64,000 bases of DNA from Candidatus Forterrea multitransposorum CG_2015-17_Forterrea_25_41 (GTDB lineage: Archaea > Iainarchaeota > Iainarchaeia > Iainarchaeales > CSSED10-239): positions 352,001 through 416,000 of the forward strand of contig CP045477.1 of the NCBI GenBank assembly GCA_009392915.1, given 5' to 3'. Under the pieces are notes generated by a model. The model saw only the letters and a program-made list of their open reading frames with translations, did no database searches and was not told the DNA's origin. Below, one piece after another: positions 10,515 through 62,200 of the stretch. Each line of letters opens with the position of its first letter. Within the stretch, counting starts at the first letter, position 1. A program made the position numbers and the translations under genes.

Positions 10515-12941
10515 TTAAATATTTTCTCTAATTTTTGATTTTGAAAAACCAGCATCTAAAAGATCTTCTTCTGAATAACCAGCAAGTCTAAGCTCTTCTA
10601 AACTATAACCTACACTTCTAAGTTCTCTTGCAGAAAAATGTAATTCTTTAAGTTCTTTGGCACCATAATGAATAACTTTCATAAGTCTAATTCCAACACC
10701 TAAATCAAAAACATCTTTTGCAGGATAACCAGCATAATGAAGTTGTCTTGCAGTATATCCTACATCATAAAGATCTTTTGCAGAAAATCCACCTTCTTTC
10801 ATAGAAGATGCATCATAACCTGCAATTTTTAAATCTCTTGCAGAATAATATGGATTTAAATCTTTTGGATAAAATCCAGCTTGAGACATTTCTTTTGCAG
10901 TATATCCTGCATTATAAAATTCAGAAATTGGTATACCTAAACCATAAAGTTCTTTTGCTTTATAACCTGCAAATCTAATAGTTGAAACATCAAAACCAGA
11001 ATCATACATTTCTTTTGCAGTATATCCTGCAGCATGATATTGTTTTGCAGTATATCCAATACTTAAAAGTTCTTTTGCACTAAATCCAGCTCTTCTAAGT
11101 TCAAGTAAAGAAAAGCCTTCTAAATGAAGTTCTAAAGCAGTAAATCCTGCAAGTCTTAAATCAATTAAATTATAACCATTTGCAAGGAAATCTTTTATTG
11201 TACATCCAAGCATATGAACTTCTCTTAAAGAATAACCACCTTCAAGTAAATCAAAACATGTACATCCAGCATTCTTTAAATCAATTGCTTTGTATCCAGC
11301 TTCTTTTAAATCTTTAATAGTATAACCTAATTTTAAAAGTTCAGGTATACTGTACTTTAAATATTTAAGTTCTTCTAAAGATACAACTTTATCATCTGAA
11401 AGAACAACAGGTTCAATAGGTTTTAAAGCAATTAACTCTGAAATATCAAATCCTGCTTCTTTAAGTTCATCAATTGTAATTCCATTTTCATATAATGGTT
11501 TTGCAGAAATTCCTTCTTTTCTAAATCTTACAAGAGGAATCTCTTTTAGAAGTTCTTTATAAGTAAAACCAATATCTAAAAGTTCTTTAATTGTAAATTT
11601 TTCTGCAACAATTTCTTCTAAAGAATAAACATCTTTAATTTCTTTTAAAGTATATCCTTTTTTTAGTAATTGTTTTAATGTAAATATTTTTGAAAGATCT
11701 TTAATTGTAAAACCACAATCTAATATTTCTTTAAGTTTATAACCAGCAGAAACAATTTCTTTTAAAGAATAACCAGCTTTTTTAAGATCTTTCGCAGGAT
11801 ATGCATATTCTTTTAATTTTTTAGCTCTAAATTTTGCATCTCTTAAATCTTTTGCATCAAATTCTGCAAAAAGAATTGAATGTTGATCAAATTTAACTTT
11901 CTTTAAATCACTTGGAGTATATCCTAAGTTTTTAAGATCTTTTGTTGAAATTCCTGCTTTCTTTAATTCTTTTAAAGAAAAATTTACATCATTAATTTCT
12001 TTAGGAGTATATTGTAGATAATAAAGATCTTTTGCAGTGAAGCCAAGTGACTTTAATGCTTTTGCATTATATTTATGTTCTTTTAAAACTTCAGCTGTTA
12101 AGCCATATGAAAATATTTCTTTTGAAGACATTTTTTTTAAAGTTTGATCATTAATAACTATTTTTACAACTTCTTCTTTTTTATTTTCAACTTTTTCTTT
12201 TTTTGCTTTTTCTTTTTTAATTTTATCTGTTTTTTCTTTTTTGCTTTTTACTTTTTCTTTTGGAAATTTATTTAAAGGTTTTATTTTTTCTTCTTTAATT
12301 TTAATTCCAATTTCTTTATCTGTAAAACCTGCTTTTCTTAACTGATCAATACTATATTTTGCTTTTTTAAGTTCTAAAATAGTATATGTACCTTGATATA
12401 GTTCTTTAGCAGTTAAACCAATATTTTTTAATTGTGATGCATCAAAACCTGCTCTCTTTAAATCTTTAACACTAAAACCAACTTCTAAAAGTTGTCTTGC
12501 AGTAAATTTAACTTTTTTTAATTCTTTTGAAGTATAACCTACAGATTTTAAATCTTTTAAATTAATTCCAAGTTCTTTTAAATCTTTTAAAGGAAATCCT
12601 GCAACTTGTAAATCTTTAACTGAATAACCTACAGAATAAAGTTCTTTTGCAGTAAAATCTAAATTTCTTAGATTTTGAGAACTAAAACCAACTTCTTTTA
12701 ATTTCTTAACAGTAAAGCCTGCTTTTTCTAAAGTTCTAGCCTTAAAGCCTAATCCCTTTAAAACAGTATAATTTGCTTTTACTTCATTTAATTTTTTTGC
12801 AAATTCTGTTTTATTTATTTTAAATTTTGAAAAAATAGAAACTGTTATTGGAGAAATAATATATCTTGAAGGAGAACTGATTTGTTTCTCTAAATATTCA
12901 TTTAATTCTTTTTTTGTTAAATTTTTTAAGTCAATAGCCAT
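10515..12941 (-). CDS. 808-aa protein built from about 68 tandem 10-residue repeats (consensus G-[FY]-[TS]-x-K-[DE]-L-[KR]-x-[AV]), with an internal Lys-rich linker; unknown function
   Basis: Read from the translation: strict 10-aa periodicity over residues 60-210 and 270-800, and a 30-nt DNA periodicity (recurrent tcttttgcag.atatcc units). There is no signal peptide. Confidence 0.7.
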   Translation of the reverse strand: MAIDLKNLTKKELNEYLEKQISSPSRYIISPITVSIFSKFKINKTEFAKKLNEVKANYTVLKGLGFKARTLEKAGFTVKKLKEVGFSSQNLRNLDFTAKELYSVGYSVKDLQVAGFPLKDLKELGINLKDLKSVGYTSKELKKVKFTARQLLEVGFSVKDLKRAGFDASQLKNIGLTAKELYQGTYTILELKKAKYSIDQLRKAGFTDKEIGIKIKEEKIKPLNKFPKEKVKSKKEKTDKIKKEKAKKEKVENKKEEVVKIVINDQTLKKMSSKEIFSYGLTAEVLKEHKYNAKALKSLGFTAKDLYYLQYTPKEINDVNFSLKELKKAGISTKDLKNLGYTPSDLKKVKFDQHSILFAEFDAKDLRDAKFRAKKLKEYAYPAKDLKKAGYSLKEIVSAGYKLKEILDCGFTIKDLSKIFTLKQLLKKGYTLKEIKDVYSLEEIVAEKFTIKELLDIGFTYKELLKEIPLVRFRKEGISAKPLYENGITIDELKEAGFDISELIALKPIEPVVLSDDKVVSLEELKYLKYSIPELLKLGYTIKDLKEAGYKAIDLKNAGCTCFDLLEGGYSLREVHMLGCTIKDFLANGYNLIDLRLAGFTALELHLEGFSLLELRRAGFSAKELLSIGYTAKQYHAAGYTAKEMYDSGFDVSTIRFAGYKAKELYGLGIPISEFYNAGYTAKEMSQAGFYPKDLNPYYSARDLKIAGYDASSMKEGGFSAKDLYDVGYTARQLHYAGYPAKDVFDLGVGIRLMKVIHYGAKELKELHFSARELRSVGYSLEELRLAGYSEEDLLDAGFSKSKIRENI
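10545..12765 (-). repeat. intragenic 30-nt tandem repeats encoding the 10-residue protein repeats
   Basis: Recurrent near-identical 30-mers on the minus strand, e.g. at 10724, 10768, 10895, 11015, 11041 and 11075. Confidence 0.6.
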
Positions 12942-21206: not shown

Positions 21207-22001
21207 TTAATAAAAACGAGATTTAACCCCTAAAAGTAAATCTGTAAAATAAAGCTCTATTTTACCATCTTTATTTCTTTTGTAAAAAATATTTGAAAAA
21301 TTTTCAAAATCACCTATTCTTTTTTGATTAAAATCTGGTTTCGTAGGAATTTTTTTATGTTCTTGAATTAATTTAATTTTATTATTAATTTCAATAAGTT
21401 CTGTTTTAGTTAATAATTTTTGATTAAAATCTTTTTGTAAATTCTTAAGACCTGTAAAATCATAGACAATAACACTTTCTCTTTTACTTAGGTTTGTAAA
21501 TGCAAAATGTGGCTTTATTGTATTTACACCAAATTTTTGAAAAACTTGATTTGCAAGAAACTCATTGTTTGCAAGATAGTCTTCTTGTGTTACTTTTAGA
21601 AAAAAAGATTTTTTTTCACCCTTATCTTTTAAAAATAAATTTAACTTTAATAATTTTAGATTGTTAAAGCTATTGTTCTCTTTAATTGGTCTTATCTCTA
21701 AACTAAACTTTTTGGTGTTATGTATTGAATGTTTTGAAGTTTGAAAAATTCCTTTTGAAATAAGCTTTACAAGTTCAGGGTATTCTTTAATTAATTTTTT
21801 ACCTAAAACACTAAGATGCATAACTTCTGATTTATTTAATTTAACTGAATAAAACTGAGTTTTAGAGTTTATCTTCAAAACTTTTAATTGTTTTTCGCCT
21901 TGGTTTACAACTCTTCTTTTAACTTTAAAATTAGGATTAATGTTACCAATAGAAACAACTGGTTTTTTATTTGAAAATAATCTTTTAAAAAATCCAACCA
22001 T
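21207..22001 (-). CDS. divergent protein-kinase-like (ELK) fold protein, unknown function; paralog of 35151-36044
   Basis: FFLKV (beta3 Lys-like), IKPHFAF, DFTGLKN, IGDFENFSNIFYKR (catalytic-loop-like) and YFTDLL (DFG-like). Collinear with the second copy. Confidence 0.4.
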   Translation of the reverse strand: MVGFFKRLFSNKKPVVSIGNINPNFKVKRRVVNQGEKQLKVLKINSKTQFYSVKLNKSEVMHLSVLGKKLIKEYPELVKLISKGIFQTSKHSIHNTKKFSLEIRPIKENNSFNNLKLLKLNLFLKDKGEKKSFFLKVTQEDYLANNEFLANQVFQKFGVNTIKPHFAFTNLSKRESVIVYDFTGLKNLQKDFNQKLLTKTELIEINNKIKLIQEHKKIPTKPDFNQKRIGDFENFSNIFYKRNKDGKIELYFTDLLLGVKSRFY

Positions 22002-22026
22002 ATCTATCTACTTTTTATTAAAAAAA

Positions 22027-22320
22027 TATAGTGGTTTACTATAAGCCGCTTTATGTATTTAATAGCAATTAATCTAAGCGGAGATTTAAAAAAACTCCTT
22101 GCACCAATTTTTGCTTCCTGCATGATTTCAGCCTCTTTCTTCTCCCCTCAGTTTTACACATCACAGGTTTTTAAAAGGAAAAGAACCGTCTTGTTTCTGT
22201 TCAGGCATGCAAAAGCCCCATTAAGGACTTTATTTTTTTTTTAAAATATTTGGTGAGCGGACCTTCCTCAGATATTTAGAATTACTCTAAATAAATGTGC
22301 TAAACATAAACCACTATATA
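22027..22320. ncRNA. GC-enriched non-coding island bounded by 12-bp perfect inverted repeats (TATAGTGGTTTA / TAAACCACTATA); candidate structured ncRNA or MITE-like element
   Basis: No credible ORF; the 63-aa track ORF is low-complexity. Local GC is clearly above the surrounding sequence. An oligo-T run sits at 22236-22248 on the plus strand. Internal hairpins include CCGCTT/AAGCGG and GGAG/CTCC. Confidence 0.35.
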
Positions 22321-22348
22321 TAATATAAAGAAAAAATAGTTTATAAAG

Positions 22349-23050
22349 CTATTTATAAGCTTTATAAATTTCATTAAAAATAATAAATGTTACAAATATA
22401 TAAATATAGATAAATATTATTGTAAAAATACCTATTAAATAATAACTAATACTAGGAAATAGTAAAGTTAATATTGAAAGAACTAGTATATATCCTATTA
22501 GAAGAATAATTAAATATCCTAAAAGATAGAAAAAAGAAACTAACATATTTTTTGTAAAAACTATTTTAAAATGTTTTTTAAAATTAAAAAAATCTTCAAA
22601 TCTACCTGATTTAATATAAGACATATAACCTATGTTTTTTACAAATTCTAAAACTAAATAACAAAAAATAACTATAATTAACAATAGAATAACTATTAAT
22701 AGACCTGAATTAAATGAAAAAACATTTTCAACATCTATACTTGATTTAAGTAAAAATACTGGTATTAACAATATTATTGATATAATACCTTGAAATATTA
22801 AATATAAAAAAGATGCTATAAAATAAACTACAGATAGTTCAAATATTTTTAAAATTGTTTTAGAATTATAATTTTTAAGACTTGATAAAATATTTGCACC
22901 AACAAGTCCTATTGATAAAAAAACAGTTAAAATAATTGAAATTAAAGAAGCTGTACTTCCTAAAATAGTAATTAAGCTTAATATTAATATTATAAGTAAA
23001 AACTTAAAATTAATAAAAGGTATTTTTAAAGAGTTTTTAAATTCCATCAT
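22349..23050 (-). CDS. polytopic membrane protein, unknown function
   Basis: About 6 predicted TM segments and no motifs. Confidence 0.5.
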   Translation of the reverse strand: MMEFKNSLKIPFINFKFLLIILILSLITILGSTASLISIILTVFLSIGLVGANILSSLKNYNSKTILKIFELSVVYFIASFLYLIFQGIISIILLIPVFLLKSSIDVENVFSFNSGLLIVILLLIIVIFCYLVLEFVKNIGYMSYIKSGRFEDFFNFKKHFKIVFTKNMLVSFFYLLGYLIILLIGYILVLSILTLLFPSISYYLIGIFTIIFIYIYIFVTFIIFNEIYKAYK

Positions 23051-23150
23051 AATTAATCAATTAAACATATTTATTTTATATCATATAATTATAGATAGAA
23101 AAGTATAAATAGATATTTAAAATTAGAAAATTAAGTTAAAAGAAGAAAAA

Positions 23151-24092
23151 CTATCTTCTTTTCTTAATAAGAGAAGATCTTGGTTTTTTATCTTCTTTTT
23201 TCAAAACAGTAGTTTTTGGCTTAGGTGTTATATAACGTGCATATTTTAAAAATAAACTATGATTACTTGATTTACTTGGATCAACAACACTTAAAATTCC
23301 AATTTTGTTTTTCTTATTTATGAAGATAATATCAAAATTAAAGTATTTTTTACCTTTTTCATAACCAATACCAACACCAGGCATAAATAAAGATTTATCT
23401 CCCTTAATATTATAAGTTCCTCTAACTTGCCAGTACATATCTTTTAACTTAGTATCTCTAGCACTGAAAAAACCAAGAGCAGCTGTAAATGATTTTTTTT
23501 TGTCAGCAGCAAAATTAACCTCACCTATTCCAGAATAATTAGTTAATTTACCATTATTAAAATTTAAACTTACTGCACCTAATACTTTTTTACTAATTAA
23601 AGCAGCTTGTGCTCTAGAACCTTTTGATGCTTCAACAATATTAAATCCTTCAAGTTTATAATTATTTAATTTTTTATCAAAACCAATTTTTAAATTTATT
23701 TCTTTACCAAAAATTTTTGAAAGATTTGCAGCAAGGTTTACTTGTTCAAATAATTTATCAGTAGTAGGTTTTTTATCAAATAATAATGTATTTGTACCTA
23801 CAGTTAAACCTAAATTATATTTCCCTTCCATAAATTTATTTTTAAAATCAGCACCATATCTGGCTTCAAATGATTGAAATAAAAAATCTTTTTGAGTTAT
23901 GGTTGTACTTAATAAAGCAACACCATTTTTTTCCATAGAAGGTGTTAAACCAGCATAATTAGACAATTGCTGTGCTTTCACAGCAGGTAAAGTTAATGAA
24001 CCTATAACAATAGGTAACCCTGCAACTAATATCTTTGAATCTTTTAAAACTGCAGAAACAAAATCTTTAAAATCATTAAATTTATAAGTCAT
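23151..24092 (-). CDS. hypothetical secreted protein with alternating-hydrophobicity (beta-strand-like) segments and a basic C-terminal tail
   Basis: N-terminal hydrophobic segment ILVAGLPIVIGSLTLPAVKA. Stretches of alternating hydrophobic residues. Ends ...LIKKRR. Confidence 0.45.
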   Translation of the reverse strand: MTYKFNDFKDFVSAVLKDSKILVAGLPIVIGSLTLPAVKAQQLSNYAGLTPSMEKNGVALLSTTITQKDFLFQSFEARYGADFKNKFMEGKYNLGLTVGTNTLLFDKKPTTDKLFEQVNLAANLSKIFGKEINLKIGFDKKLNNYKLEGFNIVEASKGSRAQAALISKKVLGAVSLNFNNGKLTNYSGIGEVNFAADKKKSFTAALGFFSARDTKLKDMYWQVRGTYNIKGDKSLFMPGVGIGYEKGKKYFNFDIIFINKKNKIGILSVVDPSKSSNHSLFLKYARYITPKPKTTVLKKEDKKPRSSLIKKRR

Positions 24093-24200
24093 AATTAATT
24101 TTCCTTTTTTATAAATATTTTAAACAACAATTAATTTATAAAGATATTCTTTTACTTATTAATTATAATAGATTAAAAGAAATTAAAAAGAAGAACAAAA

Positions 24201-24776
24201 ATGATAAAGAAGTATGATAATTTAGCTTTATTAATACACCCAATGTATTCAATAGTTACTGACATATATAGAAATACAACAGGTATGGGTAAAATCACTT
24301 TTAAAGAAATGGAAAGTGAATATGTAAAGAGATTAAATGTCTATAAAGAAAGTATTTCTTCTTTTAAAAACACAAATACTCTTTTTGTACTTGTTGAACC
24401 TACAAAAGATTTAATGAATTTTAAATTAGAATTTTTCTATAAGCATATGATGGAAGATTTATATGTTTTTGCAAAAAAAGAACTTGGTCTTTCTTTTAGA
24501 AAAATAACAGATCTTAATTATCTTTCAGATATTAAAAAAATAACACCTACTCTTAAAAAAAATATTGGAGTTTTTTCTTTTGGAGAGCATAGAGAAGTTT
24601 GTGTTAAAACATTTAATGAATATACAATTAATTTTTTAAAAGAAAATAATTTTAAACCTATTTCTAAAGGAATACAAATAAAATTTTCATTTGATATTGA
24701 AAATAAAAGATTAAGACAAGTTCAAAAAGAAAAGCCTAAACCAAAGCCAAAAAAAATAATAAAAAAAAGAAGATAA
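24201..24776 (+). CDS. hypothetical protein with Lys/Pro-rich C-terminal tail
   Basis: ORF track. Ends KEKPKPKPKKIIKKRR. Transcribed divergently from 23151-24092. Confidence 0.45.
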   Translation: MIKKYDNLALLIHPMYSIVTDIYRNTTGMGKITFKEMESEYVKRLNVYKESISSFKNTNTLFVLVEPTKDLMNFKLEFFYKHMMEDLYVFAKKELGLSFRKITDLNYLSDIKKITPTLKKNIGVFSFGEHREVCVKTFNEYTINFLKENNFKPISKGIQIKFSFDIENKRLRQVQKEKPKPKPKKIIKKRR

Positions 24777-24997: not shown

Positions 24998-25025
24998 CGC
25001 CTGCAAGCTTGGCGGAAAGCTTAAG
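24998..25025 (-). promoter_or_regulatory. conserved 28-nt tRNA 3' trailer hairpin (CTTAAGCTTTCCGCCAAGCTTGCAGGCG) directly after tRNA-Ala
   Basis: Identical, apart from one base, to the trailer after tRNA-Gly at 30261-30288. Contains two palindromic AAGCTT hexamers that can form a 6-bp stem. Confidence 0.5.
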
Positions 25026-25098
25026 TGGACTCTGCGAGATTCGAACTCGCGGCCTCGTCCTTGCAAGGGACGCGCTCTACCAGCTGAGCTAAGAGCCC
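25026..25098 (-). tRNA. tRNA-Ala (TGC)
   Basis: Hand-folded. G3:U70 identity pair. Anticodon loop CTTGCAA. T-arm CGAGTTCGAATCTCG. No encoded CCA. Confidence 0.9.
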
Positions 25099-25265
25099 TA
25101 ATAACTATTGAACCAATATATTATATATATTATAGAACAAAAATATTTATAAACACATCAGATTTATTTTTAATCAAAATTATAAAAATAAAATTATGGA
25201 CTGATAAATATACTTTTAAAAAAATATTATTAAATAAAAAAAGAAAAATTTCTTATAATTAAAGA

Positions 25266-25300
25266 AATTTTGATGTGTGGAAGAAAAACAAACACTTCAG
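25266..25300 (-). promoter_or_regulatory. 3' half of 16S rRNA processing stem (UCUUCCACACAUC...)
   Basis: Complementary to GAUGUGGAAGA upstream of the 16S 5' end (26918-26928), with a 2-nt bulge. This is the typical archaeal pre-16S bulge-helix-bulge (BHB) / processing helix context. Confidence 0.45.
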
Positions 25301-25364
25301 GTTAGGTAAGTTTTTAAAACTTTTAAAATAACAACTAACATTTAGTCATTATATAAAATAGGAG

Positions 25365-26854
25365 GTGATCCGTCCGCAGGTTCCCCTACGGACACCTTGT
25401 TACAACTTAGTCTACCTCGCGAAATATAGAATAACTTTATCCTTTAGTAGAGTAAAGTTCATCAACACTCCACTCGGTTGGCTTGATGGGCGGTGTGTGC
25501 AAGGCGCAGGGACATATTCACCGCGTGATAGTGACACGCGATTACTGGGGATTCCAGCTTCATGAGGGTGAGTTGCAACCCTCAATCCGGACTTAGACTA
25601 AGTTTTTGAGATTGCCACCCCTTTTCAGGTTAGATACTCTTTGTCTTAGCCATTGTATGCCGCGTGTTGCCCAGAACATTCACGCTATACAGACCTACCT
25701 TCGCCCACTCCTTCCTCATTGTTACCAATGCAGTCCTATTAGAGTGCCTTCTTTTGCAAGCAAAAAAAGTAGCAACTAATAGCATGGGTCTCGCCCGTTA
25801 CCTGAGTTAACAGGAAGCTTCACAGTACGAGCTGACGATGGCCATACAGCAGTTCTCAGCGCATCAGGTAACCCCTTCAGAGTGACCATCATATTGCTGT
25901 CAGCCCTGGTAAAATATCTGGCGTTTCATCCAATTAAACCGCAGCATCCACCCCTTGTAGTGCACCCCCGCCAATTCCATTAAGTTTCAGTCTTGCGACC
26001 ATACTTCCCAGGCGGTGAATTTAATGGTTTCCCTTCGGCCCTGAGCTAACTCGTAGTTAACCCAACACCTAATTCACATCGTTTACGGCTGGGACTAACC
26101 GGGTATCTAATCCGGGTTGCGCCCCCAGCTTTCGTATCTCACTGTCGAATCCGTACTCGTTAAGCGCCTTCGCCACAGGTGGTCTTTTTAGTATCTTAAG
26201 ATTCTACTCCTACTCTAAAAATACCCTTAACGTCTTCCGGTTCCTAGTCATGCCAGTATCTTTTGCAATTCAACTAGTTAGGCTAGCTGCTTTCACAAAA
26301 GACTTAACAAACCAGCTACACACGCTTTAAGCCAAATAATGCTGGATACCACTTGGGGATTACGTATTACCGCGGCGGCTGGCACGCATATTGCCCTCCC
26401 CTTATTCACATAGTTATTCACACTATATAAAAGCTTACATAGTAAGCACTTGGAATCTCTTTATCACGATTTCTCGCATTGTAAAAGTTTCGTAACTGCT
26501 GCACCCCGTAGGGCTAGGGACATTATCTCAGTTCCCTTCTCCGGGCTACCTCTCTCAAGGCCCGTACAGATCTTCGGCTTGGTAGGCAGTTACCCTACCA
26601 ACAACCTAATCTGGCGCAGTCCCATCCTTTCGCGCCAAAGAAGCATGATTCTTTGACCTTTAAAATAGTAATCATTCCAGATTTACTTTTTTATAGAGCA
26701 TTATACTCAGTTTCCCGAGTTTAACTCTTCAAAAGGGTAGGTTGACCACGTGTTACTGAGCCGTTCGCCAAAACCTCTCATAGCTGAGGCTTTAAGACTT
26801 GCATGTCTTAGTCAGATTCCAATAGCAGTATCCACCAGCAGGATCAGCTGGAAT
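25365..26854 (-). rRNA. 16S rRNA (archaeal)
   Basis: 5' ATTCCAGCTGATCCTGCTGG... and 3' ...GTAACAAGGTGTCCGTAGGGGAACCTGCGGACGGATCACCTCCT read on the minus strand. Universal segments (GTGCCAGCCGCCGCGGTAA etc.) present. About 1490 nt. Confidence 0.9.
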
Positions 26855-51791: not shown

Positions 51792-52295
51792 TTAGAAGGG
51801 TTTATAAAGGTTACCGATATATTGGTAATATTGGTAGTATATAAACTTAACCAATATAGCTATTAACCAATACTTCTTTTTATACTCTCTAGCATCAATT
51901 CTTTCTTTTAATTTTATTCTTTCTTCTACAAGTTCTTGTTTTCTTGTCTGAATTGCAAAATAACTTTGAGCAAATGCAATTTCTTCTTTTCTTGAGTCTC
52001 CATTTTGTGCTATTAAGTAACATGCATATCTAGTTAATGTATAATCAATTATTTCTCTTTCTGCATCAGATCCTAATTTAACCTTTTTCCTGACCTCAAG
52101 AAAATGGTCATTAATATTAAATCCTGAATTTTTACAAGAAATTTTTGCTTTTTCAATTATACTTACAAAATTTTCCCATTTAGTATAACCTAAAAGGTCT
52201 TGTAACTCCCTTGCAAGCCAAAATTCAAGATTATCTTTAAAATAAGCACTATCTTGAAAACTTTTAGTTAGTTTATAAATTATTTCTCTTTGCAT
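51792..52295 (-). CDS. DinD-like (DNA-damage-inducible protein D / BRO-N-like) protein
   Basis: The N-terminal half is collinear with E. coli DinD: FWLARELQDLLGYTKWENF...NDHF...GSDAEREIIDYTLTRYACYLIAQNGD...YFAIQTRKQEL. Confidence 0.65.
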   Translation of the reverse strand: MQREIIYKLTKSFQDSAYFKDNLEFWLARELQDLLGYTKWENFVSIIEKAKISCKNSGFNINDHFLEVRKKVKLGSDAEREIIDYTLTRYACYLIAQNGDSRKEEIAFAQSYFAIQTRKQELVEERIKLKERIDAREYKKKYWLIAILVKFIYYQYYQYIGNLYKPF

Positions 52296-52346
52296 AGAAC
52301 ATCACATATATATAAGAGTCTTTAATTTATATATTGATTTTGTAAG

Positions 52347-52367
52347 AGAGGGTAAATGGCCGAGAAA
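52347..52367 (+). repeat. 21-bp direct repeat AGAGGGTAAATGGCCGAGAAA (copy 2)
   Basis: Exact match to 48811-48831. Confidence 0.6.
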
Positions 52368-52382
52368 GAGAAGAATAGAATT

Positions 52383-52934
52383 TTATTTTAATAAAGCATA
52401 AAGATAATTATCATATACTTTACCATTATAGATAGCTGATTTTTTTAAAAGCCCTTCTTTTTTAAATTTACTTTTTTCTAAAACTTTAATAGAGCCTATA
52501 TTTTTAGTACAAACTTCAGCTGCTATTCTTTTAATACAGGTATTTTTAAATAAAAAATGAATATATGCTTTTATAGCTTCAGACATAAATCCTTTATTCC
52601 AATAAGAAGAATGAAGCATAAAACCTAAATCACATCTTTTAAAATCTTTAATAATTGTAAAAATATCAATAGAGCCTATTAATTTATTTTCATAAGTTAT
52701 AAAAAAAGAAGCTCCTTTTCTTTTTTTCCAAGCATCTACTTTTCTTAAAATTTGTTTTTCTACAATCTTTCTTGAGTTTTTATTATCTCCAGAACCATTA
52801 TATATCCAGAGATTTTTATCTTCATATAACTTATAAAGTTCTTCTTTATATTTTATATCTGGTTTTATAAGTAATAATCTTTTTGTCTTTACTGGCTTAT
52901 ACTTATAACCTTTGTTAAATATTTTTTCATCCAT
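52383..52934 (-). CDS. GNAT acetyltransferase (RimJ/RimL-like)
   Basis: Motif A region and the C-terminal ...KVLEKSKFKKEGLLKKSAIYNGKVYDNYLYAL typical of the RimL family. Confidence 0.7.
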   Translation of the reverse strand: MDEKIFNKGYKYKPVKTKRLLLIKPDIKYKEELYKLYEDKNLWIYNGSGDNKNSRKIVEKQILRKVDAWKKRKGASFFITYENKLIGSIDIFTIIKDFKRCDLGFMLHSSYWNKGFMSEAIKAYIHFLFKNTCIKRIAAEVCTKNIGSIKVLEKSKFKKEGLLKKSAIYNGKVYDNYLYALLK

Positions 52935-53619
52935 GGTTTAACCTTTTATATTCTTTAATTGCTTTATTAAGTACATTTAAAAAATTAGGATCTTTTTTCC
53001 ATTCTTCTAAAATAAATACTCTTAATTTAGAATGTTTAGAATAACCATCATCTTTAATTTCTATTAAATCTTTAAATTCCTCATTAATTATTACTGTAAA
53101 AGATTCTTTAATATCATGAATTTCAGATTCAGATAAATTACTTTCTTTACAAACGTTCCAAAAATAACTATGAAAGAATAAATGCATAAGCTCATGAATT
53201 ACAACTCTAAATAAATATTTATCCACATATTCGATATAAATGAATATTCCAAACCACTTTTGGTTTTTTCTAAATTCATAAGGACAAGCAACAAAAGTAT
53301 TATATTTAATATATACTTTATTAACAGGAAATTTATTTTTGTGAATCTTTTCTAATTTATTTATTATCTCATCCTTATATTTATTCAATTTTAGATTAGA
53401 ATTATAAAAATTAGTTAAATACTTTTTAGAATAAAATTTTTTAGTGTATTTATCTATTAACTCAACTTTTTTAGAATCAGATGCACTTATTAAAGAATTT
53501 TTAAAATCCTCAGGATAATCTTTAAACCAATCATTACCATAAGCACTAGAGTTTTTAATAAATTTAAGCCAATTTTTTAAATTTTCTTCTTTTGATACAA
53601 TAAATTCTATTTCAACCAT
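52927..53619 (-). CDS. putative HExxH zinc-metallopeptidase-like protein
   Basis: VVIHELMHLFFH motif; otherwise unassigned. Confidence 0.4.
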   Translation of the reverse strand: MVEIEFIVSKEENLKNWLKFIKNSSAYGNDWFKDYPEDFKNSLISASDSKKVELIDKYTKKFYSKKYLTNFYNSNLKLNKYKDEIINKLEKIHKNKFPVNKVYIKYNTFVACPYEFRKNQKWFGIFIYIEYVDKYLFRVVIHELMHLFFHSYFWNVCKESNLSESEIHDIKESFTVIINEEFKDLIEIKDDGYSKHSKLRVFILEEWKKDPNFLNVLNKAIKEYKRLNHG

Positions 53620-53627
53620 AATAAATC

Positions 53628-54008
53628 TTAAATTTCAATTATGTATTCTTTTAAAACTTTTGTACCCCATATTCTAAACTGAGTTGCTTTAGATGAATTT
53701 ACTCTATATCCTACTGATATTATTGCATCTAAATTATAAAAATCAACATTTCTTTTAACATCTCTAGTTCCTTCTTTTTGAACTATTAGGAATTTCCTAA
53801 TAGTTTGATTTTTATTTAACTCTGCAGAATCATATATATTTTTTAGATGTTCATTTATAGTTGGGATTTCAACTCCAAATAATTCTGCAATCCTTTTCTT
53901 AGTTAACCATATATTTTCATTATAAATATAAACATCTAATTTTACTTCTCCATCTGGAGATTTATACAATAAAAATTTATTATTTTTAGAAATGATCTCT
54001 TTAGTCAT
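53628..54008 (-). CDS. RhuM-family (virulence/phage-associated) protein, N-terminal domain only
   Basis: NLDAIISVGYRVNSSKATQFRIWGTKVLKEYI is the hallmark RhuM segment. The gene is about one third the usual length. Confidence 0.6.
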   Translation of the reverse strand: MTKEIISKNNKFLLYKSPDGEVKLDVYIYNENIWLTKKRIAELFGVEIPTINEHLKNIYDSAELNKNQTIRKFLIVQKEGTRDVKRNVDFYNLDAIISVGYRVNSSKATQFRIWGTKVLKEYIIEI

Positions 54009-54361
54009 AATATTTATTCTACTTTTTATATTTATTCTACTTTTTATATTTATTATTCTTTTAAATTATTTAATCACAAACAATTTTTCTAAGTATAATA
54101 ATAGAAGATTATTTATGTTTAAAAAGCTTTCCAAAGTGCCTGACCATAAAAGGATTTTTAATCTTTTGATAACTTGTAGTATAGTTATTAATATTAAATT
54201 TTTCAGAATCAGAAACACCCTTTTTTGATACTTTTTAACTTAAAAATATCATGAGTGATACTTTTTTAATTAATAGTGTCAAAAGACTACCTTTTTGATA
54301 ATTTTCTAATAATCTACAAAATAAGTTATGTTTAAATAGATTATTAATTATTAAACTATCT

Positions 54362-54817
54362 ATGGATATAGAAAAATTACCTTTTAGAAAAGAAGTTACA
54401 GCATATATTGTAAATGAAAATAAAGAATTTATAGTTATCTTTTCAGCACTTGCAAACAGGTTTTGTAAAACTCCTGCTGGAGGTGTTGAAGAAAATGAGC
54501 CTTCAGATAAAGCAATATTAAGAGAAATTAAAGAAGAACTTAATCTTGATATAGAAATTATTGCAAAATCAAAGATAGAATACAAATGGGAACATACAAA
54601 AGAAAGAATAATTGAAAGAAACTTAAAATTTAGAGGATCAACTGGAGAAGTTTTTCTTGCAAAAATAAACCCACCAAATCAAGAGATTAAAATACAAGAA
54701 GAAGAAATCTCAGGGTATAAATGGATTAAAAAAGAAGATGTAGATAATTATTTTGCAACAGACACTTTAAAAGAAACAGCAAGAAAGATGTTTGAAGAGT
54801 TTAAAGAATATTTTTAA
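54362..54817 (+). CDS. Nudix hydrolase
   Basis: Nudix box GGVEENEPSDKAILREIKEELNL. Confidence 0.7.
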   Translation: MDIEKLPFRKEVTAYIVNENKEFIVIFSALANRFCKTPAGGVEENEPSDKAILREIKEELNLDIEIIAKSKIEYKWEHTKERIIERNLKFRGSTGEVFLAKINPPNQEIKIQEEEISGYKWIKKEDVDNYFATDTLKETARKMFEEFKEYF

Positions 54818-55406
54818 AAAAATGATATTATTTATGAAAATAAGAAAAATAAAATTAAGAGAGCTAAAAGAAGCAGATATTTTTAAAGAAAAAATATTAA
54901 ACCCAGAAAAAAAAAGAAGATATAGACCATATTATAAAATTTTAAAAAATTACAAAAGAGAGCCTTCTTTATTTATTGGAGCTTATGATAAAAATAGAAT
55001 TATAGGAGTTGCTTTTGGGCATATTATAAAAAATAGAATATTATTAGGTGAAATGGCTGTTTTAGAAGAGTATAGAAACAAAGGGATTGGAAAAAAAATA
55101 TTAAAAAAAATTGAACAAAATTCAAAAAAATTAAATAAGAAATATATAGAGCTTGGTGCTCTTGATAATGCAGAAAAATTTTATCTTAAACAAAATTACA
55201 AACCAATTATTTTTGTGCAAATATATCCAAAAAATATCTTGAAAAATTACAATCATTTAAATTATAAAATAATTAAAGAAACAAATTATGTTGATTCTAA
55301 AAGATTTTATATTGAGGTTAAAAGATATGATCCTAAATTAAAAGAAAAAATAGAAAAAGAATTTAAAGCATATGATGTAATCTATTTATTTAGAAAATAT
55401 TTATAA
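54792..55406 (+). CDS. GNAT-family N-acetyltransferase
   Basis: Motif A VLEEYRNKGIGKKIL. Confidence 0.6.
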   Translation: MKSLKNIFKKMILFMKIRKIKLRELKEADIFKEKILNPEKKRRYRPYYKILKNYKREPSLFIGAYDKNRIIGVAFGHIIKNRILLGEMAVLEEYRNKGIGKKILKKIEQNSKKLNKKYIELGALDNAEKFYLKQNYKPIIFVQIYPKNILKNYNHLNYKIIKETNYVDSKRFYIEVKRYDPKLKEKIEKEFKAYDVIYLFRKYL

Positions 55407-56924
55407 CTTAAAATCCCAAAGATGTTTACCATCAATAGTTGCATTCTTATCCATCTCTTGGATATACTTTCTAATTACCTTATAACTCTTTTCTAAAGGA
55501 GTTACTGGTTTTTTACCTTGATCAATTCTTGTAAAAGAAGAAATAATGTCTTCTTTTGAATATTCCTTAAGTAATAATTTATAAAAACCTTCTTGTAAGA
55601 AAGGTACAAGATTTCTAAAATAGGAAGAAGCTAGATTTAAATTATTTTTATTTTTTGCCTTAAGATACTCTTTAAAGTTATCTTGCATAAATTCAACCAT
55701 ATTTTTTAACTTTATTTCAATATTTATATAATCTAAAGATAAAATATACTTAGTTAATTCTTTTTTATCATTTTCAAATTCTTTTGTTTTAATTATTTTT
55801 ATCATTTTAAATAAAGATTTTTCTTTATTAACTAAAATTTTTAATTTTGGAGAATAATATACTTTTCCTTTCTTTCCATCAACTATAACTTCATCAAAAT
55901 TATTTGTTTCTTTTAATAATTTTGAAATATTAATACCACCAATACAAGGTATATTATTTTCTCTTGCAACTATTGCAGGATGTGAGGTTATTGAATCAAC
56001 TTCACAAATAACAGCTTTAGCTTTTTTAAAAATAAGGTCATATTCTGGAAAAAGAACATAAGTAACTAAAATATTTCCTTTTTTAAATATTTTATAAGCT
56101 TCTTTAGGGTCAGTTGCATCTGAAACATATTCTATGTTTCCTTTAGCATAACCATTTGAAAGGGTTATACCTTTTAGTTCTTTTTGGTTTTTTGCTTTAT
56201 TTACTATAATTTTTTTAATATTTTTTAAAGTAGTAATATTTCTTGTTTGTAAAAACCAAATTCTGTCTTTATTATCTATTGCAAATTCTATATCTTGAGG
56301 ATATTTAAAATATTGTTCAATTTGTTTTCCTTCTAGATATAATTTTTTAAAAGTTTTATTTAATTGTTTAGTAGTATTAATTTTTAAAGAATTTTTCTTT
56401 CCTGAAACCATTTCTTCTAGATGTCCTTTTACATGTTCTATTAAAAAACCTTTATTTGTTATTGGGTTTTTTGTAAAATATACTCCTGATAGTTTTGGTA
56501 TTATTTGTTTTTGTATAATTACAGCTAAGGTATCTTTTAATTTTTTATTAGTATATGATTTTAAAGAGATTTTCTTTTCTGAAGCAATAACTTTAGATAT
56601 TGCTAAAAATAGTTCTTTTTCATTATTTATATTTGTAATTGAGGTAAACTGTCCTGCAAAAGATTGTTTTACAGAATCTTCATAGATTGAAGAGCTTCTA
56701 ACAACTAAAGGGTATAATTCTCCTCCATAGTCTATTTGTTTTAAATAATCTTTAATTTGTTTCTTTAGATTAAGAGAAAAAGATTTTTTTATTATTTTAC
56801 AGAAATCTCTAGAGAGAACAAAACCATTAGGCACATTATAGGCTGCTCTTTTTAAAAGCATTAGGTTATATGCTTTATTTCCTACTTGTTTTTTATCAGC
56901 TACAGTGTAAAGGTTATAGATCAT
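55401..56924 (-). CDS. PEP-utilising-enzyme family protein (PPDK-type ATP-binding N-domain plus phosphohistidine swivel domain, no PEP/pyruvate TIM-barrel domain)
   Basis: The N-terminal VGNKAYNLMLL...VPNGFVL...VVRSSSIYEDSVKQSFAGQF...PQDIEFAID...LQTRNIT matches the PPDK_N domain. The C-terminal ICEVDSITSHPAIVARENNIPCIGGI matches the mobile His domain. Confidence 0.65.
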   Translation of the reverse strand: MIYNLYTVADKKQVGNKAYNLMLLKRAAYNVPNGFVLSRDFCKIIKKSFSLNLKKQIKDYLKQIDYGGELYPLVVRSSSIYEDSVKQSFAGQFTSITNINNEKELFLAISKVIASEKKISLKSYTNKKLKDTLAVIIQKQIIPKLSGVYFTKNPITNKGFLIEHVKGHLEEMVSGKKNSLKINTTKQLNKTFKKLYLEGKQIEQYFKYPQDIEFAIDNKDRIWFLQTRNITTLKNIKKIIVNKAKNQKELKGITLSNGYAKGNIEYVSDATDPKEAYKIFKKGNILVTYVLFPEYDLIFKKAKAVICEVDSITSHPAIVARENNIPCIGGINISKLLKETNNFDEVIVDGKKGKVYYSPKLKILVNKEKSLFKMIKIIKTKEFENDKKELTKYILSLDYINIEIKLKNMVEFMQDNFKEYLKAKNKNNLNLASSYFRNLVPFLQEGFYKLLLKEYSKEDIISSFTRIDQGKKPVTPLEKSYKVIRKYIQEMDKNATIDGKHLWDFKL

Positions 56925-57087
56925 ATTTAATCAAGTGTAATAGATATATGAGGATTTATGTTTAAAAGGCTTTCTTAAGTAGCTTATAAAAGGACTTTTT
57001 TCTTTAATCTGTAAAGAAAAACCTTAAAATCCTTAAAAAAAAGAAAATAATAAATAGATTAAAAATAATTTAATTTTAAATTATAAT

Positions 57088-57753
57088 CTATTTATTAATT
57101 ATATTGATAACATCAATTAAATCTTCAATTACATAATCTGGTTTATATAAAAAATGTTTATAAGGCAATTTAAGTGGATTATATAAAACAGCATTAATTC
57201 CATATTTTTTAGCTTCAATATCAACAGATAAATCCCCTATATGTAAAACATTTGAAGGTAAATAACCATCTAATTTAATTTTATTAATAAAATCAACATA
57301 TGGTTTACCAGATGCTTTCTTTCCACCTACTTCATTAGATAATGAAAAATATTTAAAATTATTAAATTTATTTTCTTTAACCCAATCTTTAATCCAGCTA
57401 GTTTTTGTATCACTAATAATTCCAAGAATATAATCTTTTTTTATTAAGTATTTTATTAATTTTAAAGTATTTTTAGAAAATTTATTTTTTAAAGTATATT
57501 CTTTGGAATTATTTATTATATTATTATAATTTTCAGAAATTGCTTTAGATAGACTTTTAGTATATTTAATATTAATTTTTTTTAATAAAACTTTTAAAAA
57601 AGCATCTTCTTTATATTTACTATTTTGAAAATCTCTCCAAGTTTCTTCAACAGCCTTAAGATAATTATTATATGTTAATGTAAAATTTTCTTTTTTTAGT
57701 ATTTTAAATTCACTTTTATATATTTCAAATAACAAATTTGGATCACTATCCAT
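57088..57753 (-). CDS. HAD-superfamily hydrolase
   Basis: Motif III/IV region HIGDLSVDIEAKKYGINAV and LGIISDTK. Confidence 0.55.
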   Translation of the reverse strand: MDSDPNLLFEIYKSEFKILKKENFTLTYNNYLKAVEETWRDFQNSKYKEDAFLKVLLKKINIKYTKSLSKAISENYNNIINNSKEYTLKNKFSKNTLKLIKYLIKKDYILGIISDTKTSWIKDWVKENKFNNFKYFSLSNEVGGKKASGKPYVDFINKIKLDGYLPSNVLHIGDLSVDIEAKKYGINAVLYNPLKLPYKHFLYKPDYVIEDLIDVINIINK

Positions 57754-58296
57754 AAATAAAGTATTTGAAACGTCAAAAGATATTATTTTTATAGTTTTAA
57801 TAATAATCCCTCTTTATTTTATATTTATAATAATATATAAAACTCATATATTATTTAATTATATCTTTTATAATAAAACATTTTAAATAAGAAAGAAATT
57901 ACAAGAAAAACCTTAAAATCTTTTCAAAAAGTTTAAAATTATCAAAAAAAGAATAAAAGAAAATAAAACTACTTACAATTAATAAGACTATTGGAAAATA
58001 TAATAAAAGGTTTCTAAATAAAACTAAAGGCCATGCAATAACATCCATTATAAAGAGAGAAAATTTATTCTTAAGTAGTAATAACTAAAAAAGTATTATA
58101 ACTATATTGATCTGTTTTTAATAAAAGAAAGGTAAAAATTTAAAAATATATTAATAATTGCAAAGGAAAAAGTGGCAATTAATAGATATATTGTTATTTT
58201 TTGTTTGTTTTTCATAATATAATATATTGTTAAAAGCTTTCTAACAGCTACAATTAAGTAAAACTTAAATATACTTATGTAACTCTTAATATTTAT

Positions 58297-58533
58297 ATGG
58301 TAGAAAAAGAACTTGCACTTATAATAAATGGAAACTTAAGAAAAAAGATAATATTAAGTTTAGCAATTCCTAACATAGCCACAAATTTAGCAAAAAAATT
58401 AGATGTTTCAAGATCTTCTGTATCAAGGACCTTATTATTTTTAGAGAAGCATTTTCTTGTAGAATGTATAAATAATGATGCAAGTTTTAACAGGTTATAC
58501 AAGCTTACCTTAAAGGTACAAGAAAGTTTCTGA
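58297..58533 (+). CDS. small wHTH transcriptional regulator (ArsR/PadR-like)
   Basis: LAKKLDVSRSSVSRTLLFLEKHFLVE recognition helix/wing pattern. The overlapping minus-strand 69-aa ORF is low complexity. Confidence 0.4.
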   Translation: MVEKELALIINGNLRKKIILSLAIPNIATNLAKKLDVSRSSVSRTLLFLEKHFLVECINNDASFNRLYKLTLKVQESF

Positions 58534-58566
58534 TATGTTAAGGAAGATGTGATTATTATACTTTAA

Positions 58567-59220
58567 TTAAGTATAAATTATTTTACTTTTTATAAATTTA
58601 ATTTCAAGTTTTTCTGTGCATTTAATTTTAATTATTATATTTGCACTTTTTGAAAAATTATCTGCAAAAATATTTATGTTTGAACTAATTTTATATATTT
58701 TATTTTTTTCAAATTTAATTTTAGGAAATCCAATAGGTATTTGTTTAATCATAGGTAAAATATTTCCATTTATATTTACACTTCCTTCAAAAAAATTAAA
58801 TAAATCTAAATAATGCAATTCATTTTTAGATAAATTAAAATTTTCTTTACCTTCAGAACATTTACCTTTATGAGTTGCACTCCAGACAAAATAATTAGGA
58901 TCAAAAGGATATATTTTTTTATTATTCAATTTTATTTCATTACATTTAATTTTAATATTGTTTATTGCTATTGAACCTATATTTATTACTTTTATTCTAA
59001 AATAAATTAAATTACAACTTGAACCATCATGTTGATTAATATAAATTTTATTAATCTTATGAACACAGTTAACATCATCTAAATCAATTTTAATTTTTGG
59101 TTTTTTAATAAAATTAATAATATCTTCTTTAAATAATGCAACAACTACTGCACATAGAGTTAAAAAAGCCATAATTATTTGAATAATTGAATCTAAATTA
59201 TTTTCAACCATCAATACCAT
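58567..59220 (-). CDS. single-pass membrane protein of unknown function, translationally coupled to hsdR (17-nt overlap)
   Basis: N-terminal TM IIQIIMAFLTLCAVVVALF; no motifs. Confidence 0.45.
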   Translation of the reverse strand: MVLMVENNLDSIIQIIMAFLTLCAVVVALFKEDIINFIKKPKIKIDLDDVNCVHKINKIYINQHDGSSCNLIYFRIKVINIGSIAINNIKIKCNEIKLNNKKIYPFDPNYFVWSATHKGKCSEGKENFNLSKNELHYLDLFNFFEGSVNINGNILPMIKQIPIGFPKIKFEKNKIYKISSNINIFADNFSKSANIIIKIKCTEKLEIKFIKSKIIYT

Positions 59221-62200
59221 CTCTACAAATTCTTTCTGCTTGTTCTAAAACCAATTTTACTGCTTCTGCTTGCATATCAGGAGGATAACCATACTTTGAA
59301 AGAATTCTCTTAACCAAAACTCTTATCTTTGCTCTTTCAGTTTCTCTAATTTCCCAATCAACGCTTGTTGTATTCTTTTTAATAGTATCTGTTAAAATTT
59401 TTGCAATAACAACTATTTGTTTATCCCCTAAAACATCTAAAGCACTTTTATTATTTGAAAGAGCATCATAAAAAGCAACTTCATCTTCGGATAAATCAAG
59501 TTCTTCACCTTTCTTTTCAGAAGCTTTAATTTCTTTTGCAATTTTTAATAGTTCTTCAATAACTTCAACAGTTGTTATACTTCTATTAGTATATAATTTA
59601 ATAATATTTTCAATCATTTCCTTAAAAGATCTTTGTTTTACAATATTTTTTCTAAATCTGGATTTAATTTCATCATTAAGAAGTTTTCTATACATCTCTA
59701 ATGCTAAATTCTTTTGAGGTAAATTTTTAATTTCAAGCATAAATTCTTCAGAAAGTATAGAAATATCTGGTCTTTTAAGTCCTGCAACTTTTAAAACATC
59801 CATAATTCCAGAAGACATTATTGATTTTGAAATTAATTGATTTAAATTTTGTTCTAAAAGCTCAGTTTGAGAAATATTTCTAGTAACAGTATTTTTTACA
59901 AACTGTGATTTAATTGCTTGGAAAAATGCAATTTCTTCTTTTAAATCTAAAGCTCTTTTATCAGGAACTGCTAAAGAGAATGCTCTTAAAAGATTAATAG
60001 TTGCATCAATAAATCTTTTTTTACCATCTTCTTGTTTTAATATATGTTCCATTGCATTAATTAAAAGCTTCATTCTATAATTTGTGTCTTTATTTTCTAA
60101 ATCATATTCAAACTTATATAATAAAGATTTAACAACATCATATTTATTTAATAATAAATTTACTGCTTCTTCTTGATTAATTCCAACCTTTTGTTGATCT
60201 TTTGGAGAATAATTACCTAAGGCTTCTTTTAATTGAGTAAGTATACTTATATAATCTACAATTAATCCACCTTGTTTTTCTCCAAAAACTCTATTTACTC
60301 TTGCAATTGCTTGCATTAAATTATGGTCTTTCATTGGTTTATCAATATACATTGTATGAAGAGAAGGAACATCAAAACCAGTAAGCCACATATCTCTTAC
60401 AATTACAAGTTTAATCTCTGAAGAAGGATCTTTAAAAACATCTCCAATTTCTCTTCTTTTTTCTGAATTTCTAATATGTCTTTGCCAGTCTAAAGGGTCA
60501 GTTGCGTTACCAGTCATTATTACCTTTAAAAATCCTTTTTTATCATCTTCGTTATCCCACTCTGGTTTAATTTTTATTATTTCATTATATAAATCTACAC
60601 ATATTCTTCTAGACATACAAACAATAATACCTTTTCCTGGCATTCCTAGTTGTCTTTCTTGGAAATGATTTATTATATCTTTTGCAATTTCTTTAATTCT
60701 TTCAGGATGACCTATTATTTTTTCAATTCTTGCCCATTTACTTTTTAATTGTTCTTTTGTATCTTTTTCTTCAGTTTCTGTTACATATTCAAAATCTTTA
60801 TCTAAAGTTATTTGAGATTCTGGATTTAAAGATATTTTTGCAAGTCTACTTTCATAGTAAATAGGAACTGTCATTTTATCTTCAACAGCTTTACTGATAT
60901 CATAAACATCTACATTTTCTCCAAATACATTTCTTGTACTTTTATCACTTTTTTCAATTGGAGTTCCTGTAAAACCAATATAGGTTGCATTTGGAAGAGC
61001 ATCTCTTAGGTTTTTTGCAAAACCTTCTAAAAAACCATATTGTGATCTATGTGCTTCATCAACAATAACAACTATATTTTCTCTATTTGATAGTTCTGGA
61101 TAAACTTCTCCTTTATTTTCTGATGAAAATTTTTGAATTGTTGAAAAAATAACTCCTCCAGAAGATACTTGTAATAGTCTTTTAATTTCTTCTCTATCTT
61201 CTGCTTGTTTTGGATCTTGTCTTAAAACATCTTTACATTTTGAAAATGTTGTGAAAAGTTGATCATCTAGTTCGTTTCTATCTGTTAAAACTAATAAAGT
61301 TGGATTGTTTAGTTGTTGTATAACTTTTCCTGAATAGAAAAGCATGGTTAATGATTTTCCTGAACCTTGAGTATGCCAAACAACACCTGCTCTTTTATCT
61401 TTTCCTTTAACAGCTTTAATTGTTGAAGATACTGCATTGTTTGTTGCATTATATTGATGATATGCTGCTATTTTTTTAATAGTTTTATCTTTATCTGCTT
61501 CATAGACTATAAAATTGTTTATTAAGTCTAATAATGTTTCTTTATTTAACATTCCTCTTATTAAAACTTCTAATTGTGTTAAATAAGAGGCTTGATCTTT
61601 ATATATTGTTTTCCAGATCATGAATCTATCTAGATTTGAAGAAATTGTTCCAACTCTTGTGTCTGTTCCGTCTGAAATTACTAAAATTTGATTATAGTTA
61701 AAGATTGTTGGAATTTCTTGTTTGTATGTTTGTAATTGGTTGTATGCTTTTTTAATATCTGCATTTTCATCTGTTGGATTTTTTAATTCTATTAAAACAA
61801 CTGGTATTCCATTTATAAATAAAATAATGTCTGGTCTTCTGGTATGTTCAGTTTCTTTAATTGTAAATTGGTTTAATGCTATAAATTCATTATTGTTTAT
61901 GTTATCTTTGTCTATTAAGTTTATTTTTATCCATTTTAGGTTTCCATTTATTCTTGTTTGAACGGTTATTCCTTCTGTTAGATATTTGTAAATTTGTTTG
62001 TTGTTTTCTATTAGTTTTTGTGATTCTATTCTTTGTAGTTTTTTAATAGCTTCTTGTTTTGCATCTTCAGGAAGATTTGGGTTTATATCACTTATTTTTC
62101 TTTTTAAAGTTTCATTTAAGAGCACTTGTGAGAAATCATCTCTTTCTGGTCTTTGGCTATCTGGAGCTATGTCTACTCCATTAAGTTTAGTGTAACCTAT

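Follow-up and report, generated by a model that had tools for sequence, protein, structure and literature searches.

What kind of genetic element is a GC-enriched, apparently non-coding island of about 290 bp that is closed at both ends by a perfect inverted repeat and lies between two genes of a very AT-rich archaeal genome? The original prediction offered three answers, a reduced RNase P RNA, an SRP RNA and a MITE, and our analysis points strongly to the first. The window, by which we mean the whole 64-kb stretch of DNA that was analysed, is archaeal, carrying a full-length archaeal SSU rRNA gene and three tRNA genes at a GC content of 24.4%. The predicted enrichment is real: 294-nt windows average 24.4% GC (sd 5.3%), and the element, at 33-34%, ranks in the top 3.9% of them. 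The largest run of such windows at 34% GC or above is formed by the SSU rRNA and tRNA-Ala genes, and a few protein-coding stretches also reach 34%. The two flanking ORFs (21207-22001 and 22349-23050) are both on the minus strand, as described. The only ORFs overlapping the element are short (63, 39 and 31 aa), and comparison with the homologue in contig L126, which is 86-89% identical, shows indels of 1, 2 and 3 nt, so that any reading frame across the element is broken and the prediction that no ORF survives can be upheld.

The 12-bp inverted repeat is likewise present and can be extended to 13 bp (22026-22038 with 22307-22319). Perfect 12-bp inverted repeats at comparable spacing occur as 31 pairs in the window, against 20.5 +/- 5.8 in first-order Markov simulations, and a repeat of this length is therefore not by itself significant in DNA so rich in A and T. 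The minus strand of the element folds at -76.5 kcal/mol (z = -3.8), a value equalled by none of 200 shuffles, and the plus strand at -58.2 kcal/mol (z = -2.05), equalled by 7 of 200. One feature of the original description had to be corrected: the T10 run said to follow the element on the plus strand (22233-22242) sits inside it and is A10 in the RNA, and the run that does follow the RNA on its own strand is a T7 (22026-22020). The earlier failure to locate the RNase P signatures CR-I and CR-V also has a simple cause, because both lie on the minus strand.

We conclude with high confidence that the minus strand from 22318 to 22027 encodes the catalytic RNA subunit of the ribonucleoprotein form of RNase P, the universal enzyme that trims tRNA 5' ends, in a very AT-rich DPANN archaeon. 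When the region 21900-22450 was searched in E-value mode, RF00373 (RNaseP_arch) matched 22315..22030 on the minus strand over the entire model (positions 1-288 of 288; 46.7 bits, E = 4e-12), and the next best Rfam family had an E-value above 2. The match is clear but lies below the RF00373 gathering score of 84 bits, and a default scan of the whole window at Rfam gathering scores reported the SSU rRNA and the three tRNAs only, leaving the element out. A sequence-only nhmmer profile was also made from nine RNase P RNAs of Iainarchaeota that score above the Rfam cut-off; its single hit in the 64-kb window was minus-strand 22271..22042 (E = 1.4e-6). All of the conserved regions from CR-I to CR-V are present on that strand and in the correct order (Table 1); the Rfam alignment displays GAGGAAGGUCC as CR-I, ACAGAAAC and CUGAAAU as the two specificity-domain junctions and ACAUAAAGCGGCUUA as CR-V, together with GUGCAAG ... 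CGCUUAGAUUAAU as J5/15 and CR-IV. The inverted-repeat arms form P1 in the RF00373 match, so that the guess of a terminal P1 helix was correct, and the end-to-end match, the complete set of conserved regions and P1 together bear out the first of the three readings.

That the element might instead be an SRP RNA, or some other structured RNA outside the RNase P family, was suggested by its size and closing terminal helix, both compatible with an archaeal SRP RNA, and has a probability that we regard as negligible: no SRP family reached E <= 10 on either strand of 21900-22450 and none appeared window-wide at gathering scores, the sole significant family is RNaseP_arch, and the conserved motifs belong to RNase P. 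The notion of a novel ncRNA lapses by the original prediction's own rule that a clean Rfam match marks a known one, here with a match below the gathering cut-off. The element belongs to a known family and is an ordinary housekeeping gene, neither a new RNA nor a transposon. What is new is a very AT-rich member lying under the curated threshold and a reduced, type M-like architecture in a DPANN lineage, and the literature that we searched yielded nothing specific on RNase P RNA structure in DPANN archaea or Iainarchaeota.

Table 1. Features of the RNase P RNA locus, in window coordinates, with RNA positions given for the conserved regions
Feature	Sequence	Window position	Strand	RNA position	Basis or remark
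RNase P RNA gene (rnpB/RPR)		22027..22318	-		292 nt, first to last P1 pair; RF00373 match, nhmmer profile, covariation
Inverted-repeat arms	TATAGTGGTTTA; TAAACCACTATA	22027-22038; 22307-22318			Each unique in the window; perfectly complementary
Candidate archaeal TATA box	TTTATAAA	22340..22347	-		-29..-22 from first P1 base; directly after stop codon of upstream ORF
P1 5' strand	UAUAGUGGUUUA	22307..22318	-		Inverted-repeat arm; 3 of 12 P1 pairs changed on both sides in relatives
P3 hairpin	AUUUAGA-GUAAU-UCUAAAU	22274..22292	-		6 of 10 pairs changed on both sides
CR-I	GAGGAAGGUCCGC	22257..22269	-	50-62	Holds J3/4 and P4 5' strand with bulged U
P5, enclosing specificity domain	CACCAA/UUGGUG	22102..22255	-		P5 invariant
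P7/P8 region, degenerate		All-A/U hairpin at 22232-22247	-		Rfam alignment
P9		22213-22230	-		Different complementary arms between clades
P10/11		22202-22211 with 22112-22120	-		Rfam alignment, sequence
CR-II	ACAGAAAC	22193-22200	-	119-126	Rfam alignment, sequence
P12		22137-22185	-		P12a: both-sided changes in two pairs, one-sided in three
Candidate K-turn/K-loop at P12 tip	CC-[UGU]-GAUG-(UGUAAAA)-CUGA-GG	22146..22167	-		Read from sequence; box C/D-like, candidate L7Ae site
CR-III	CUGAAAU	22125-22131	-	188-194	Rfam alignment, sequence
P15, plain hairpin	GGAG-UUUUUUUAAAU-CUCC	22080..22098	-		4 bp, 11-nt U/A loop
CR-IV, P2 3' strand and CR-V (J2/4 and P4 3' strand)	GCUUAGAUUAAU; GCUA...; ACAUAAAGCGGCUUA	22042..22079	-	240-251 (CR-IV); 263-277 (CR-V)
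P1 3' strand	UAAACCACUAUA	22027..22038	-		Other inverted-repeat arm
T7 run, candidate oligo-T terminator for archaeal RNA polymerase		22020..22026	-		Directly after P1 3' strand; kept in L117, L121, L123 and L128

Relatives of the element came from two scans. A pattern scan of GTDB species genomes for CR-I, ACAGAAAC and GGCUUA at the spacing of the element RNA returned 119 loci, many of them in DPANN archaea, among which L117 ('Candidatus ainarchaeum sp.') is 99% identical to the element and L047 is 86% identical by BLAST and 88.7% over aligned positions. A second, more specific scan of metagenome contigs supplied copies that are about 99% identical (L121, L123 and L128), 86% identical by BLAST and 88.7% over aligned positions (L126), and about 70% identical (L122, L124 and L125). 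The close relatives carry the label 'Candidatus (I)ainarchaeum' in public records, and the window's SSU rRNA shares 99.9% identity with its counterpart in L123, 91.9% with that in L124 and only 76.6% with that in the GC-rich 'Ca. Iainarchaeum' L101, identities from which the organism is placed in a deep, very AT-rich branch of the NCBI-labelled Iainarchaeota.

Scores against RF00373 descend through these relatives: the RNase P RNAs of the Iainarchaeum loci reach 143, 142, 140, 138, 124, 109, 94, 80, 59 and 55 bits, the metagenomic homologues 55-99 bits, and the AT-rich clade 55-68 bits. Below the cut-off fall eleven related loci at 55-68 bits and a twelfth, more distant one at 80 bits. The RNase P RNAs of Iainarchaeota are thus a continuum in which the score drops with rising AT content, with our element at the AT-rich end, and its sub-cut-off score tracks AT content rather than missing parts. 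Two further observations concern the relatives themselves. At window position 22053, in J2/4, the element reads ACAUAAA, as do L126 and L047, and L117, L121, L123 and L128 read ACAGAAA with nearly all other relatives, so that a core position which is normally conserved is polymorphic here. The two loci of the 86% clade each hold a tRNA match of about 118 nt (L047 3435-3552 and L126 3019-3136), presumably an intron-containing tRNA gene.

The homologous loci also provided the covariation check that the original prediction had proposed, and its outcome was positive. Pairs were counted for a curated structure (P1, the P2 core, P3, the P4 pseudoknot, P5, P12a, the K-turn stems and P15) on an alignment of a closer set of eight homologues; when the window RNA was aligned by plain MAFFT to RNAs of GC-rich Iainarchaeum loci, P12-P15 came out misaligned, and that alignment was left out of the counts. 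In the alignment used, 97.3% of cells were paired, against 43-52% when the partners were slid by 1-3 columns; 14 pairs had changed on both sides, against 1-3; and the covariation score was 0.264, against 0.04-0.10, with none of 500 shuffles reaching the observed values. These 14 compensatory pairs fall in P1, P2, P3, P12 and the K-turn stem, and RNAalifold, unaided, recovered P1, P3, P4, P5 and P12 from the same alignment. P4, in which AGG(U)CCGC of CR-I pairs with GCGGCUU of CR-V, has seven pairs, all of them formed in each of eight sequences, six being invariant and one alternating between A:U and G:U; this helix and P5 are supported by conservation and not by covariation.

Indels shift P9, P10/11 and P15 of L122 and L124 in the alignment, and these helices were accordingly compared sequence by sequence. 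P9 is drawn from the arms AAGUCC/GGGCUU in the window's clade and from CAUCUG/CAGGUG or CAGAUG in L122, L124 and L125; the P2 core is AGC/GCU in the window, GGG/CCC in L122 and L125 and GGC/GCC in L124; and the P15 site of other Iainarchaeota has other complementary arms (GCC/GGC, CUCC/GGAG, GCAU/AUGC). In this wider set, both P9 and P15 covary. A longer P2 and a P7 helix, both sought by hand, gave no register shared by the window's clade and L122, L124 and L125, and for P2 past its 4-bp core and for the P7/P8 region there is no confident drawing. A separate feature of the GC-rich Iainarchaeum loci L043, L025, L101, L004, L019, L111, L119, L120 and L127 is an extra G/C-rich hairpin between the P2 3' strand and J2/4 (CCGCCGCGCUCGCGCGGCGG in L043), absent from both the Rfam archaeal consensus and the window RNA. 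The site of this hairpin is where eukaryal RNAs place P19.

The covariation of the arms bears equally on the proposal that the element is a MITE or another non-autonomous mobile element with terminal inverted repeats. An intergenic island of about 290 bp with a 12-13 bp perfect inverted repeat at its two ends has the appearance of one, yet the arms covary as a helix in relatives, inverted repeats of this kind are no commoner than chance in the window, and no target-site duplication or direct repeat flanks the ends. Nor did a BLASTN search reveal MITE-like copies: the element is single-copy in the 64-kb window, the other matches being short, weak and mostly on A/T runs, and each related contig holds one copy, always at the orthologous locus. 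Wherever the flanks of a relative extend far enough, relatives of about 70% identity included, this locus lies downstream of the SSU rRNA and tRNA-Ala genes and on their strand. We therefore regard a mobile element as extremely improbable.

The RNase P RNA gene appears to have its own expression signals and to be under selection. A candidate TATA box and a candidate oligo-T terminator bracket it closely (Table 1), and a TTTAAATA box stands at -30..-23 in the roughly 70% identical L122, L124 and L125, an arrangement from which we infer that the RNA is transcribed as a unit of its own, its leader and trailer being short or absent. Among contigs of the same species the RNA is 98.6-99.0% identical, against 95-96% for the upstream gene and 72-75% for the downstream ORF, and in the next clade it is 88.7% identical against 68-70% for the flanks. 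This selection, combined with the single copy and the constant locus, excludes a mobile element and argues against a decaying relic. The downstream ORF itself (21207-22001, 264 aa) has no Pfam match and, at that DNA identity between strains, is a fast-evolving gene.

A decaying relic would be expected if this reduced DPANN genome no longer needed RNase P, as in Nanoarchaeum equitans. Such a history could account for the low Rfam score, the degenerate P7/P8 region and weak distal P2, the G-to-U change in J2/4 and the failure to find RNase P proteins in the window, but we judge it very improbable: the RNA is the best conserved part of its neighbourhood (99%, against 72-96% for the flanks), the changes in relatives are compensatory, the motifs of the catalytic core and the K-turn are all intact, and the promoter box is conserved. 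As for the proteins, Pfam scans of ORFs of 90 aa or longer in the window (a few overlapping longer ORFs excepted) identified none of POP5, RPP30, RPP21, RPP29 or L7Ae, and their absence from 64 kb of genome is uninformative. The protein-only enzyme HARP is reported to be missing from every DPANN genome examined, and the ribonucleoprotein form of RNase P to be near-universal in Archaea (PMC6380272).

The locus also has a distinctive relation to the rRNA genes. The window carries SSU rRNA and tRNA-Ala at 25025-26854, with the RNase P RNA downstream on the same strand, and has no LSU or 5S rRNA in its 64 kb; the same order of SSU, tRNA and RNase P without LSU is found in L121, L123, L124 and L125, and L122, which begins downstream of the SSU gene, has the tRNA and then RNase P only. 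In the GC-rich Iainarchaeum L101 the order is SSU, tRNA, LSU and RNase P RNA, the last about 95 nt past the LSU gene, and in L004, which begins inside the LSU gene, the RNase P RNA lies about 110 nt past it. This distribution suggests that linkage of the RNase P RNA to the rRNA operon is ancestral and outlasted relocation of the LSU gene.

Other parts of the window have features of their own. The stretch 23125-24752 (about 1.6 kb) is missing from L121, L123 and L117, contigs of the same species that otherwise align on both sides of it; it contains ORFs at 23151-24092 (minus strand, 313 aa) and 24201-24776 (plus strand, 191 aa), both without a Pfam match, and is a strain-specific insertion between tRNA-Ala and a DUF4013 gene. 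Farther away, 51792-63963 holds a cluster of the sort that typifies mobile-element or defence regions, with genes for a protein with a Bro-N domain, a fragment of the RhuM family, the R subunit of a type I restriction enzyme (1018 aa) and an ATPase resembling AAA_15/AbiEii. At 10515-12941 a protein of 808 aa is encoded in which 'Decapeptide' repeats (PF25296, 12 stretches, 592 bits) take up nearly the whole length.

Measured against the family model, the RNA is complete in outline and reduced in specific places. It shares with RF00373 a full-length match, CR-I to CR-V, P1-P5, P9, P10/11, P12 with its K-turn, and P15, and it differs in its 34% GC, its 46.7 bits under a threshold of 84, a weak distal P2 and two shortened segments. 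Where the model has a 34-nt P15-P17 insert the Rfam alignment gives the element 8 nt, and a 7-nt deletion between P5 and P7 removes the J5/7 segment that supplies the P6 5' strand, so that the RNA is left without L15, P16, P17 and P6. These four absences are the ones that define type M RNAs (PMC4919922; PMC5499556). Like the type M RNAs of Methanococcales and Archaeoglobus, the element has a simple hairpin P15, lacks P16/P17, the P6 pseudoknot and the CCA-binding L15, and has its K-turn in P12 only (PMC4919922; PMC5499556); unlike them, it comes from a DPANN lineage. Type M RNAs also have no P8 (PMC4919922). In the element an all-A/U hairpin, AUUUU-A5-AAAAU, can be drawn in the region that Rfam aligns to P8; the roughly 70% identical L122, L124 and L125 have no hairpin there, and strains are polymorphic at this site (U4A10/U5A9/U6A8) with the length kept. 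The higher-GC Iainarchaeum loci L043, L025, L101, L004 and L019 share the hairpin P15 with the element but keep a G/C-rich P8, which makes the resemblance to type M probably one of convergent reduction.

The type A RNAs, for example those of Pyrococcus and Methanothermobacter, share with the element the core, the junction motifs of the specificity domain and the P12 K-turn, and they possess L15, P16-P17 with a further K-turn, a P6 pseudoknot and a P7-P8-P9-P10 cruciform (PMC5499556; PMC4919922), of which the element lacks the first three and has degenerate P7/P8. The type T and type P RNAs of Thermoproteaceae (Pyrobaculum) are, like the element, reduced archaeal RNase P RNAs that general models can miss (PMC3579882), but they are without nearly the whole specificity domain (PMC4919922), whereas the element keeps P9, P10/11, P12, CR-II and CR-III.

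At the tip of P12, the GAUG and CUGA of the K-turn are invariant among homologues, and the C-stem pair beside the bulge is C:G in the window's clade and U:A in L126, L122, L124 and L125. A second K-turn in P12 was sought by hand, and the 9-nt asymmetric loop below the first (UUUUAAAAA) has no G.A potential; only one K-turn is thus evident in the element, whereas in type A and type M RNAs it is double (PMC5499556). Since L7Ae binding to P12 K-turns is established for RNAs of both types (PMC5499556), the P12 tip would be the expected L7Ae site and is our candidate for it.

We can outline how such an RNA might function. It would be transcribed from its own TATA-box promoter and end at the T7 run. 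Sequence and covariation together show a catalytic domain composed of helices P1-P3 and P5, a P4 pseudoknot in which a U is bulged and the short P15 hairpin, and a specificity domain composed of P9, P10/11, P12 and the conserved A-rich junctions ACAGAAAC and CUGAAAU. By analogy with known archaeal RNase P, the RNA would assemble with POP5-RPP30, RPP21-RPP29 and L7Ae, with L7Ae bound to the K-turn of the P12 tip; the specificity domain would then read the tRNA elbow and the P4 core would cleave the 5' leader from pre-tRNA, as expected from the family. None of the window's three tRNA genes encodes a 3' CCA, in keeping with an RNA that has no CCA-binding L15 loop (PMC4919922). Without L15, P16, P17 and P6, and with no CCA in the tRNA genes, the RNA is probably dependent on protein for substrate binding, as type M RNAs are (PMC5499556).

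The finding has value first for annotation, as an essential and universal RNA gene was missed at the Rfam gathering cut-off in an AT-rich lineage. A survey that applied the 84-bit cut-off would wrongly call DPANN genomes of this kind devoid of RNase P RNA, an error that matters because one DPANN archaeon, Nanoarchaeum equitans, is to our knowledge truly without it. The remedy would be a model made for the lineage or a threshold that takes composition into account. For the family as a whole, the element is one more example of reductive RNase P RNA evolution and opens no new question. It is possible, though we lean slightly against it, that this very AT-rich DPANN branch independently reduced its RNase P RNA to a type M-like form that is smaller in one respect, with a hairpin P15 and no L15, P16, P17 or P6, only one K-loop in P12 and, in place of the P7-P8-P9-P10 cruciform, something close to a three-way junction. 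Higher-GC relatives in the same nominal phylum keep P8 and have the extra hairpin between P2 and J2/4. If this were true, a single phylum would show stepwise reduction of the RNA together with growing dependence on protein.
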